DNA of 26,193 bases from IMG/VR virus record IMGVR_UViG_2671180431_000011; one strand, written 5' to 3'. This stretch comes from a virus. Taxonomy: Duplodnaviria; Heunggongvirae; Uroviricota; Caudoviricetes. Below, piece by piece: positions 8,946 to 9,883 of this stretch. Below the pieces are notes generated by a model, which was given only the letters and a program-made list of their open reading frames with translations, did no database searches and had not been told where the DNA came from. The number at the start of each line of letters is the position of its first letter. Positions within the stretch are counted from its first letter, which is position 1. Both the position numbers and the translations under genes were made by a program.

Positions 8946-9883
8946 CCCCTGAATCCTGCCGGGATCTGGCTGTAGTCCACGTTGTCGTAACTGGCTTTGA
9001 AGTACGGGTCTTCACGTTTTTCTGTGTGCGTGCTGACGGACGGCGATAAGCGCAGGGAAAGCTCATCCCATTTTTCCCGCAACTTCGACGGGCTGAGCAC
9101 GTTACGGCACCAGAACGGATCGCGGCTGACGCGGCTGTACATCTCGCAGATTTGTTTGTGAGTACGACCATCCTGCACACACATCAGGCGAATTTCGTTT
9201 GCCCATGCTGTCCAGTTCGGTTCTTTGGGACGAACCACCTCGCCGTCACATTCGGCGGCCTGCTCGTACAGGGCAATGATTTTTTTCCAGAGCCACTGTG
9301 CGCAGGTCAAATCATCCTGCGTTCCCCACTGGCGCTTTTTAGGGCTGAATACAACCGCATCAGGATGGCGAGTTAAAAAATCCTGTTCAGCCGTCTGCGT
9401 GTCCGGTTGCGAAGCGTCCGGACGAGAAGGTTTTTTATCTGACGGATCATGTTTTGATTTTACTGACGGATCCCCGCCAGATTCTGACGGGTGAAAACCC
9501 GCTTTTTTGCCAGATTTCGACGCATCAAATTTTGACGTGTCAGATTTTGATGCGTCAGATTTTGACGGGTCAGAATCTGACAGTTGAGAAAATGCCGCTG
9601 CCTGAAGCTTCGCAACGTTAAGCTGATAAACATTCGACGCATTGCGGTTACCCTGGCGACGCGCCTTACGCGTTAACCAGCCTTCTGCTTCCAGCCGTGC
9701 GATAGCCGTTCTGACGGTACTCATCCCCGCGCCAATCTGACGGGCAATAGTTTCAATTGATGGCCAGCACACACCTTCGTCATTACTGAAATCAGCCAGG
9801 CGGGCCATAATTGCCACGCTGGATAATTTCATGCCTGACGCAGCGCAACCATCCCATACATAGCCGGTTAATTTAGTGCTCAT
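8942..9883 (-). CDS. Replication initiator (lambda O-like function) with N-terminal HTH and internal iteron-encoded linker
   Basis: N-terminal winged-HTH-like region (SSVAIMARLADFSNDEGVCWPSIETIARQIGAGMSTVRTAIARLEAEGWL). Internal low-complexity SKSD repeats are encoded by a DNA direct-repeat array. ATG at 9883 preceded by AGAGGT. Confidence 0.6.
   Translation of the reverse strand: MSTKLTGYVWDGCAASGMKLSSVAIMARLADFSNDEGVCWPSIETIARQIGAGMSTVRTAIARLEAEGWLTRKARRQGNRNASNVYQLNVAKLQAAAFSQLSDSDPSKSDASKSDTSKFDASKSGKKAGFHPSESGGDPSVKSKHDPSDKKPSRPDASQPDTQTAEQDFLTRHPDAVVFSPKKRQWGTQDDLTCAQWLWKKIIALYEQAAECDGEVVRPKEPNWTAWANEIRLMCVQDGRTHKQICEMYSRVSRDPFWCRNVLSPSKLREKWDELSLRLSPSVSTHTEKREDPYFKASYDNVDYSQIPAGFRG
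9436..9584. repeat. Iteron-like direct repeats (about 8 copies of a roughly 15-bp TCAGATTTTGACG-type unit); probable ori
   Basis: Read directly: tctgacgga, tactgacgga, cagattctgacgg, cagatttcgacgc, atcaaattttgacgtg, tcagattttgatgcg, tcagattttgacggg, tcagaatctgacag. They lie inside the initiator gene, as the ori does in lambda O. Confidence 0.6.

Follow-up and report, generated by a model that had tools for sequence, protein, structure and literature searches.

A probable replication origin within the O-like initiator gene of a lambdoid prophage module that has no helicase-loader gene

That lambdoid phages carry their replication origin inside the gene for the initiator protein O is well known. 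The locus described here raises the question of whether an array of short repeats inside another O-like initiator gene has the same role, and of how a helicase would reach such an origin when no helicase-loader gene accompanies it. The locus lies in a DNA stretch of 26,193 nucleotides (the window), taken from the virus record IMGVR_UViG_2671180431_000011 (Caudoviricetes), which is a mosaic lambdoid prophage of Escherichia coli. An earlier note, made from the sequence alone, had described direct repeats inside the O-like gene of this stretch as an iteron array, and had likened them to the arrangement in phage lambda, where the initiator binds within its own coding sequence.

Positions 9425–9582 of the window are probably the replication origin of lambdoid prophages of the SfII/SfIV/CPS-53 type, placed in the part of the O-like gene that encodes the interdomain linker. 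In the mechanism proposed here, dimers of the N-terminal winged-helix domain of the initiator would bind 13-bp palindromes, of which five abut at intervals of 15 bp and one lies 33 bp beyond them, together with two half-sites. The nucleoprotein complex thus formed would then destabilise an adjoining stretch of about 40 bp, with an A+T content of 70%, which holds the GATC-linked half-sites. The lambda-O-like C-terminal domain of the initiator would bring in the replicative helicase. As neither P nor DnaC nor DnaB is encoded by the phage, this helicase would most likely come from the DnaB–DnaC complex of the host. We infer each of these elements, namely binding of the repeats by the initiator, the start of replication at the array and the route of helicase loading, from comparative evidence.

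The repeats lie within the O-like gene, as the earlier note had stated; the gene is on the minus strand. The count of about eight repeat elements in 9436–9584 given in the note is borne out as six full units, five of them abutting and one set apart, and two half-units (Table 1). Six copies stand in register, with starts at 9475, 9508, 9523, 9538, 9553 and 9568 (spacings of 33, 15, 15, 15 and 15 bp), and there are two shorter copies, TTTATCTGACGGATC at 9434–9448 and TTTTACTGACGGATC at 9458–9472. Tandem Repeats Finder detects a 15-bp period at 9511–9574 (4.3 copies, 81% matches, score 86). The periodicity of about 15 bp that had been ascribed to the whole set holds for the five tandem units, to which it is confined, and fails for the remaining elements. 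Every unit is itself palindromic (GTCAGA-A-TCTGAC), a feature which had not been remarked before. On the coding strand the consensus of the unit is gTCArAaTCTGAc, a 13-bp near-palindrome accompanied by a 2-bp gap, and it is this composition that makes the five tandem units abut. A search of both strands of the window for GTCAGATTTTGACG, allowing up to three mismatches, gave 12 matches, 10 of them within 9475–9582; for the whole window 2.8 ± 1.7 matches would be expected by chance, and 12 were reached in none of 100 shuffles. The same scan revealed no second cluster of the motif elsewhere in the window. In the window and in intact phages the array lies 300–375 nt into the coding sequence. Residues 107–124 of the initiator (SKSDASKSDTSKFDASKS) are the array-encoded peptide which had been quoted as an acidic linker rich in Ser, Lys and Asp; the richness in these residues stands, whereas the peptide is roughly charge-balanced and not clearly acidic.

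Conservation of the array was assessed in a scan using one genome per species, which gave 76 loci with N-terminal identities of 58–100% and, among them, 70 usable genes. These relatives range across the Enterobacterales, from Shigella to Providencia, Proteus, Yersinia, Pantoea and Rahnella. The role proposed for the repeats had been taken to hang on their presence in related initiator genes, and the array was found in all 70. Relatives carry four to seven tandem units, with ten in one locus. In 40 loci the sixth unit lies 33 bp from the last tandem unit, and in 27 the interval is 48 bp (15 + 33), the longer spacing arising because the last tandem unit of those loci is probably too degenerate to be counted. 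The distance from the sixth unit to the first GATC block is 15 bp in each of the 67 loci scored.

The choice of codons within the units is strikingly narrow. The core of a logo drawn from 385 units in the 70 loci reads T-C-A-r-A-A-T-C-T-G-a-c. The first Ser codon is TCA in 370 of these units and the second ends in T in 329, while 315 have a middle codon with A in the third position and none has one with G, so that AAG is never used within units. Outside the array, in the same genes, AAG makes up 37% of Lys codons, and TCA and TCT make up 17% and 9% of Ser codons, respectively. The third position of the variable codon within the units is nearly free (0.46 bits of information), and third positions in codons for invariant residues of the N-terminal domain have reached saturation, with an entropy of 1.36 bits; for these two reasons the fixation of codons cannot be explained by recent transfer. 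Strong conservation at all codon positions is also found in the sixth unit, and a block of about 75 bp which follows the array (consensus ggTTTTgACCCgtCAGAATCTGGcGGgGATCCGTcAGTAAatTCAAaacaaGAtCCAtcAgatAaaaaa) is conserved at all three codon positions, with a third-position entropy of 0.66–0.78 bits. The alignment breaks down about 48 nt beyond the first GATC, where the C-terminal domains diverge. Together these patterns show that conservation acts on the DNA beyond what the peptide would need, and that it is specific to the unit core and tracks the palindrome. The array is a clean example of selection on DNA which overrides codon choice within a gene.

The repeats and the N-terminal domain co-vary and are exchanged jointly, as one specificity unit. 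When compared with the window by blastn, phage mEp460_4F5 is 96.8% identical over 8448–9438 and 92.3% identical over 9878–10352, with no homology over the segment between them, which comprises the N-terminal coding region and the whole array. In place of this segment mEp460_4F5 has a different domain, without a Pfam match, six repeats with a period of 23–24 bp, and three A+T-rich 12-mers, and this replacement reads as a classic origin layout with a different DNA-binding domain. The repeat core in the mEp460_4F5 cassette (L002 3495–3667) is GGTCAAARTG, and the adjoining 12-mers are TACAGAGAATA-like. The converse exchange is seen in Citrobacter phage phiNP and 54 other loci, which keep the N-terminal domain and the array and carry a Phg_2220_C C-terminal domain.

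Divergence of the N-terminal domain is likewise accompanied by change in the repeats. The four most diverged lineages (Trabulsiella, K. spallanzanii, phiP27 and Kp4866-6) have 58–69% N-terminal identity, and in all four the outer pair of the dyad is altered complementarily, from G/C to T/A or C/G; in one of them the inner pair has also become A/T. Examples of the diverged units are GTTCAGAaTCtGAAC, GTCCAaaatcTGGAC and TCAAAwTTTGA. The palindrome and the 15-bp period are retained in these lineages, and the encoded peptide changes from SKSDA to SESER, PKSGR or SKFEG. Symmetric change of this kind is the pattern expected of sites that would be read by dimers of the adjoining domain. Within that domain, Arg58 is replaced by Ile in the two lineages whose half-sites read GTTCA/GTCCA. 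A third N-terminal subclass occurs in a Rac-like prophage of E. coli (L164 2501–4201), as a YdaU-like protein encoded after ydaS/ydaT; its 15-bp units (wTTGACCCsTCAAwT) keep the TCA/TGA phasing, with the conserved dyad on another centre (TTGAC-CC-GTCAA).

The protein that would read these sites is encoded by a gene with a 100% identical copy in E. coli ST540, and with DNA identities of 98.9% to gp41 of Shigella phage SfIV and 98.4% to the O gene of SfII. PHROG 391, 'replication initiation O-like', covers the protein over its full length (E = 5.5e-135), and the sole Pfam match is to the HTH_36 winged helix, at residues 23–70 (E = 4.3e-11). In an AlphaFold model built with 30 homologues, residues 1–99 form a winged helix, with a predicted local distance difference test score (pLDDT) of about 64–88, consisting of a helix-turn-helix and a beta-hairpin wing with strands at 70–74 and 84–88. 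A linker at residues 103–164 is predicted to be disordered (pLDDT <50, at 32–38); beyond it lies a helical C-terminal domain (about 165–282), the core of which, at about 190–280, has a pLDDT of 73–93. The array-encoded residues fall within the disordered segment of the model, so that the whole repeat region would be linker-encoding. The best Foldseek matches of the N-terminal domain are weak ones to dimeric winged-helix proteins of the MarR/ArsR type (E from 1e-3 to 3e-2), and a sequence search of the PDB gave weak MarR matches only; the predicted fold weakly resembles dimeric winged-helix proteins that read palindromes. Foldseek gave no match in the PDB for the C-terminal domain, and an NCBIfam scan of the initiator returned nothing informative.

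BLASTP aligns residues 70–277 of the initiator with lambda O at 30% identity over 210 residues (E = 6e-26), most closely over 187–277, and on this ground the C-terminal half is a true homologue of lambda O. Further PHROG matches of this part are to families 277 ('O-like'), 2514 ('DnaD-like helicase loader') and 4880 ('replisome organizer'). The N-terminal domain has no profile similarity to that of lambda O (hhalign probability 0.1%); lambda O itself matches Pfam Phage_rep_O (PF04492) at 5.7e-36, whereas the window protein matches HTH_36 instead. The lambda-like arrangement of an origin inside O, as suggested in the earlier note, is supported by the conservation of the array in all usable relatives and at the DNA level, by its exchange together with the N-terminal domain, by its position in the linker, by the dyad symmetry of the repeats and by the C-terminal homology.

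Table 1. Positions of the origin candidate, its initiator gene and associated features in the window
Feature	Position	Strand	Sequence or order	Basis and remarks
Five abutting 15-bp iterons	9508–9582		gene order 9568–9582, 9553–9567, 9538–9552, 9523–9537, 9508–9522	each a 13-bp near-palindrome + 2 bp
Spacer with T5 and A4 runs, conserved	9491–9507		GTGAAAACCCGCTTTTT on + strand	between tandem units and sixth unit
Sixth, separate iteron	9476–9490		GCCAGATTCTGACGG on + strand	coding-strand palindrome CCAGA-A-TCTGG
Candidate unwinding region	9425–9472		TTACTGACGGATC 9460–9472, TATCTGACGGATC 9436–9448	two GATC-joined half-iterons
O-like replication initiator gene, 313 aa	8942–9883	-		N-terminal winged helix, disordered linker, lambda-O-like C-terminal domain
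N-terminal winged-helix DNA-binding domain (aa 1–100), presumed iteron reader	9584–9883	-		Pfam HTH_36
Lambda-O-like C-terminal domain, presumed helicase-recruitment end	8942–9430	-		BLASTP against lambda O
Exchangeable cassette: N-terminal domain coding region and whole array	9439–9877			blastn against mEp460_4F5
PerC-family (yfdN-like) gene, in lambda P position	8451–8945	-		Pfam PerC, E = 1.9e-9; PHROG 1324 'transcriptional activator'

Sequence matching the gene is present in 3357 of 5426 complete E. coli genomes, with at least 80% of the gene covered in 1576. Many database entries of the protein (P0035, P0044, P0032 and others) stop or change frame inside the repeats (QNLTRQNL...), and the array seems to be especially prone to frameshifts or to errors of assembly. 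A homologue search with the N-terminal 100 residues returned mostly short fragments, many of them broken in the array, which served as alignment seeds. Among 80 IMG/VR loci with 100% identical N-terminal domains, which were used for copy-number variation only, the length of the product varies between 303, 313, 318 and 323 residues.

Directly downstream of the units in gene orientation, as with the A+T-rich region of lambda, lies the least stable 40-mer of the initiator gene (9425–9464; 70% A+T, nearest-neighbour free energy -47.0 kcal/mol). The candidate unwinding region which includes it contains two GATC sites, at 9469–9472 and 9445–9448, 24 bp apart and each fused to a half-unit (GATCCGTCAG on the coding strand). 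Among 71 genes this stretch has an average A+T fraction of 0.69, and 63 of the genes have two or more GATC sites in it. Entropy at third codon positions of the region is 0.66 bits, compared with 1.36–1.39 bits in the N-terminal domain. GATC sites are also found in the unwinding regions of P1 oriR and oriC. Neither strand of the window contains a match to the DnaA-box consensus TTWTNCACA, of which chance would give about three, and the conserved block contains no convincing match by eye to the consensus for integration host factor. In many relatives (L084–L159) genes for adenine methyltransferases (Pfam Dam, MT-A70 and D12 class) closely follow the initiator. The GATC sites and the nearby methyltransferases hint at a control linked to methylation or to SeqA.

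How the helicase is loaded is a separate matter. Domain scans of the window from the integrase through the lysis genes revealed no P, DnaC-like or DnaB-like gene, and the earlier remark that no helicase-loader gene is evident therefore holds for the whole early region. The same is true of the 70 related loci, in which no loader or helicase gene was found downstream of the initiator; the genes in that position are often adenine methyltransferases, PerC-like genes or genes for LexA-domain proteins. The PerC-like gene was considered as an obligatory partner in place of P and was rejected in this role, since only some 20 of the 70 loci have it directly after the initiator. The module of the window belongs to the O-only class, in that its O homologue is the only recognisable replication gene. 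A survey of lambdoid phages found that 34 of 314 have an O homologue as their sole replication gene (PMC12315714; Genome Res 2025); no module of this kind had been studied, and the replication of such phages was called not understood.

Relatives of the initiator that do have neighbouring helicase or loader genes offer some guidance. The phiP27 protein (L17), a more distant member of the N-terminal family, is followed by DnaC-like (IstB_IS21) and DnaB-like genes. The YdaU-type gene of the Rac-like locus, which encodes a C-terminal domain like that of lambda O, has a DnaC-like gene after it, and this gene order shows that a C-terminal domain of the lambda O type would be able to work with a loader of the DnaC family. 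The Rac-type C-terminal subtype also occurs in P0141, with no DnaC gene on its single contig, which is short and perhaps chimeric.

The array has been encountered before, in a different guise, in E. coli K-12. In a genomic screen by systematic evolution of ligands by exponential enrichment (SELEX), the strongest peak for the LysR-type regulator SrsR (YgfI) was in the yfdO/yfdP spacer of prophage CPS-53, with an intensity of 1206 against at most 288 at nine other sites (PMC9181523; Kobayashi et al. 2022, Int J Mol Sci). DNase I footprinting at this locus, carried out at 10–40 µM protein, gave a 66-bp protected region with four 11-bp boxes, TCAaATTTTGa, TCAGATTTTGa, TCAGATTTTGa and TCAGAgTcTGa. 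The mRNA of the yfdO operon was decreased in an srsR mutant and increased on overexpression of SrsR (PMC9181523). These four boxes are four units of the array in the K-12/DH10B sequence (boxes at L166 2085–2140, array at L166 2068–2142), and within the four boxes the K-12 array differs from that of the window at one position (TCAGAgTCTGA against TCAGAATCTGA). The K-12 initiator gene, the remnant yfdO, is a truncated pseudogene which has lost its 5' end, and it is because of this deletion that the array appears to be intergenic in K-12. The published account reads the site as a promoter operator, without mention of an origin, iterons or a truncated initiator gene (PMC9181523). Literature searches on the motif strings, on the SfV and SfIV origins and on yfdO gave no description of these repeats as iterons; the SfIV genome paper contains no description of an origin, and the motif strings occur in no relevant paper besides that on SrsR.

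The SrsR data give rise to one competing explanation, in which the array is primarily an operator through which the host protein controls a prophage operon (yfdONMLK in K-12), and in which the conservation of the array comes from regulation. The top SELEX peak, the footprint over four units and the response of the operon mRNA to srsR (PMC9181523) all agree with such an operator, which would be expected to lie at a promoter or between genes. In the window and in intact phages, by contrast, the array is deep within a gene and not at a promoter, and it is retained even in Providencia, Proteus, Yersinia and Rahnella, distant genera which may or may not carry srsR. The footprint, moreover, was made at the protein amounts given above, and the other nine SrsR sites fit the box poorly, at 6–9 of 11 positions (PMC9181523). 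Nor can an operator account for the joint exchange of the array and the N-terminal domain, or for the change in the palindrome that accompanies divergence of this domain. On account of these last two points SrsR control is kept as a minor and rather improbable rival for the evolved function. In another explanation the repeats are genuine initiator sites, used for autoregulation, copy-number control or incompatibility, while replication starts elsewhere in the phage genome. All of the linkage between the array and the N-terminal domain fits this equally well, the A+T-rich region is not striking, and there is a precedent in plasmids, where iterons serve control as well as initiation. Set against it are the conserved block of low stability which follows the array with fixed geometry, the finding that no other copy of the motif occurs in the window, and the full classic layout, with repeats and A+T-rich 12-mers, of the exchanged mEp460_4F5 cassette. 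In addition, sites within the O gene are the origin in every lambdoid phage that has been studied (PMC7466680). Both the conserved block beyond the array and the example set by lambda and the Stx phages make sites devoted to control only unlikely.

Two further explanations would deny the array a role as a double-stranded binding site, and both are very improbable. If the repeats were a slippage-prone, low-complexity coding linker of the SKSDA type, with no function in the DNA itself, one would expect the predicted disorder of the encoded segment, the differences in copy number between isolates (products of 303 to 323 residues, as listed above) and the many database fragments which end or shift frame in the array. 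The synonymous positions of the unit core are, however, nearly invariant across genera beside neighbours that are free or saturated; the peptide varies freely (SKSDA, SESER, PKSGR, SKFEG) as the palindrome and the 15-bp period persist; and the array is replaced along with the DNA-binding domain. What was found for the codons and for the dyad excludes a linker with a purely coding role. Alternatively, the array might act as a hairpin, in RNA as a translation attenuator or in single-stranded DNA as an initiation signal. A 181-nt RNA from the array folds at -55.2 kcal/mol, against -35.7 ± 3.8 for shuffled sequences (z = -5.1), although any run of palindromes must fold in this way and the fold is therefore not independent evidence. 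An A/C mismatch at dyad positions 7/11, which would weaken hairpins, is kept in 220 of 478 units, and the pairs which flank the dyad centre are conserved even though they cannot pair in a hairpin. Searches of Rfam at permissive E-values gave only sub-threshold matches to miRNA precursors of eukaryotes (31.9 bits, where the gathering score is 97).

An origin read by the adjoining domain is the explanation preferred here, and several points weigh against it. Initiator binding and origin firing at the array rest on inference, and the only published binder of the array is the host regulator SrsR/YgfI (PMC9181523). The N-terminal domain lies outside the Pfam family of lambda O. The 15-bp spacing of the units is out of phase with the DNA helix and, since spacings are 20–24 bp in lambda and 23 bp in mEp460, a wrapped complex of the lambda type cannot simply be assumed. 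The A+T-rich region is weaker than that of lambda and modest within the window itself, 9425–9464 ranking only among the 5.7% least stable 40-mers. A phage loader gene is absent from the module, and for this reason a complete mechanism cannot be drawn. Finally, the prophage is at least partly decayed, as seen from its frameshifted rusA gene, and the copy in the window may therefore never fire.

The cassette is also found in phage-sized circular 'plasmid' records. Two such records from complete E. coli assemblies are NZ_CP081716.1 (37,667 bp) and CP085522.1 (41,492 bp), which show a mobility class only and no replicon type; they may be episomal or induced phage genomes. The presence of the cassette on molecules of this kind lends weak support to the array being an origin.

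SrsR binding and an origin need not compete, and SrsR may form a real secondary layer of control. A more specific proposal, for the present a speculative and somewhat unlikely one, is that the SrsR box is the phage origin iteron, and that SrsR competes with or assists the initiator, thereby coupling prophage replication or induction to the stationary-phase or stress state of the host. If this is true, the best genomic target of SrsR is the origin used by O-only lambdoid prophages of a widespread family and, with a defined initiator–origin cassette, there would be a handle on how DnaB is loaded without a phage loader. Independently of this proposal, the origin explanation re-reads the top in vitro target of SrsR, which is the main source of the SrsR consensus, as a probable remnant phage origin in a truncated initiator gene.

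The array shares with phage lambda the placing of dyad-symmetric repeats inside the initiator gene, between the domains, with a candidate for the less stable A+T-rich stretch downstream; the C-terminal domains are homologous, and the repeats occupy the same relative place in the protein alignment. The two differ in the N-terminal domain, which is Phage_rep_O in lambda and HTH_36 here, and in the sites, since lambda has four 18-bp sites spaced 20–24 bp apart and the window has 13-bp palindromes at 15 bp, in 5 + 1 copies with two half-sites. The window further differs from lambda in its two conserved GATC sites, its weaker A+T-rich stretch and the lack of a P gene. Iteron plasmids with Rep_3 initiators, and P1 oriR, resemble the window in having arrays of initiator-binding repeats beside an A+T-rich region. 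Rep_3-type plasmid iterons lie outside the rep gene, are usually 17–22 bp long and non-palindromic, and are accompanied by DnaA boxes, whereas the units of the window are palindromic and inside the gene; no Pfam match to Rep_3 was found in the window.

The phage origins nearest to this one are likewise distinct from it. The Stx phages P27 and 933W also have iterons in the O gene (PMC7466680) and, since the iterons lie there, their number sets the length of the linker, an origin with six iterons having 13 extra residues; synonymous recoding of the iterons abolished plasmid replication (PMC7466680). These phages differ from the window in having lambda-type iterons (ATCCCTCAAAACGAGGGA), a lambda-type O and a P gene. 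The O-only phage mEp460_4F5, in a class that also includes LLS (PMC12315714), has a single O homologue and no helicase or loader gene, as here, and shares the C-terminal domain and downstream gene of the window at 96.8% DNA identity, while its N-terminal domain and repeats differ. Origins or repeats of O-only modules were not described in that survey (PMC12315714). The phiP27 L17 protein and the Rac-like YdaU-type protein share the N-terminal family (60% and about 57% identity, respectively) and have 15-bp repeats in the linker, with units (TCAGAwTCTGAA in phiP27, wTTGACCCsTCAAwT in the Rac-like locus) which both differ from those of the window. The Rac-like locus retains the GATCCGTCAG pair, the phiP27 counterpart of which is GATCCGCAAG. 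Taken together, these comparisons support the array as a new case of a lambdoid origin within O, with its own family of DNA-binding domain, unusual abutting 15-bp palindromes and a module that lacks a gene for a loader.

For a prophage module which is very common, the likely origin and the DNA-binding domain that matches it are in this way defined at base resolution. The module is also found in the serotype-converting Shigella phages SfII and SfIV, and the compactness of the initiator-plus-origin cassette makes the question of O-only replication testable.

On the minus strand, cro (10772–11032) is followed in order by a CII-like gene, a DUF4222 gene with an overlapping open reading frame (ORF) of 112 codons, and the initiator gene, after which come the PerC-like gene, a LexA-domain gene, the frameshifted rusA, KilA-N, DUF968, Q, a DNA methylase and the lysis genes. 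The plus strand carries cI (11130–11822), yfdP/Q/R-like genes and the integrase (15298–16284), followed by host genes. The immunity region at 10805–12340, with cro and cI, has no match in those regions of ST540 and SfIV that share the replication genes at 97–99%, from which it follows that the replication cassette sits in a mosaic with a different immunity type.

Upstream of the initiator, the two minus-strand ORFs at 9873–10094 (DUF4222; Pfam, 3e-19) and 9893–10231 (112 residues; PHROG 1170, 2.9e-70) overlap by about 200 nt in different frames. PGAP annotates the DUF4222 ORF and the SfIV record the 112-residue ORF; either the two are a true overlapping pair or one of the families has been built on the wrong frame. 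The rusA gene at 7738–8128, on the minus strand, is split into ORFs of 69 and 85 residues in different frames, and the copy in E. coli ST540 is annotated likewise; it is a frameshifted pseudogene, and the prophage is at least partly decayed. Beyond the integrase, on the plus strand, a yeeJ-like inverse autotransporter/invasin gene at 20092–26122 is divided into three ORFs (20092–21168, 21169–22320 and 22250–26122), apparently through an in-frame stop and a frameshift; this gene, too, is probably a pseudogene.

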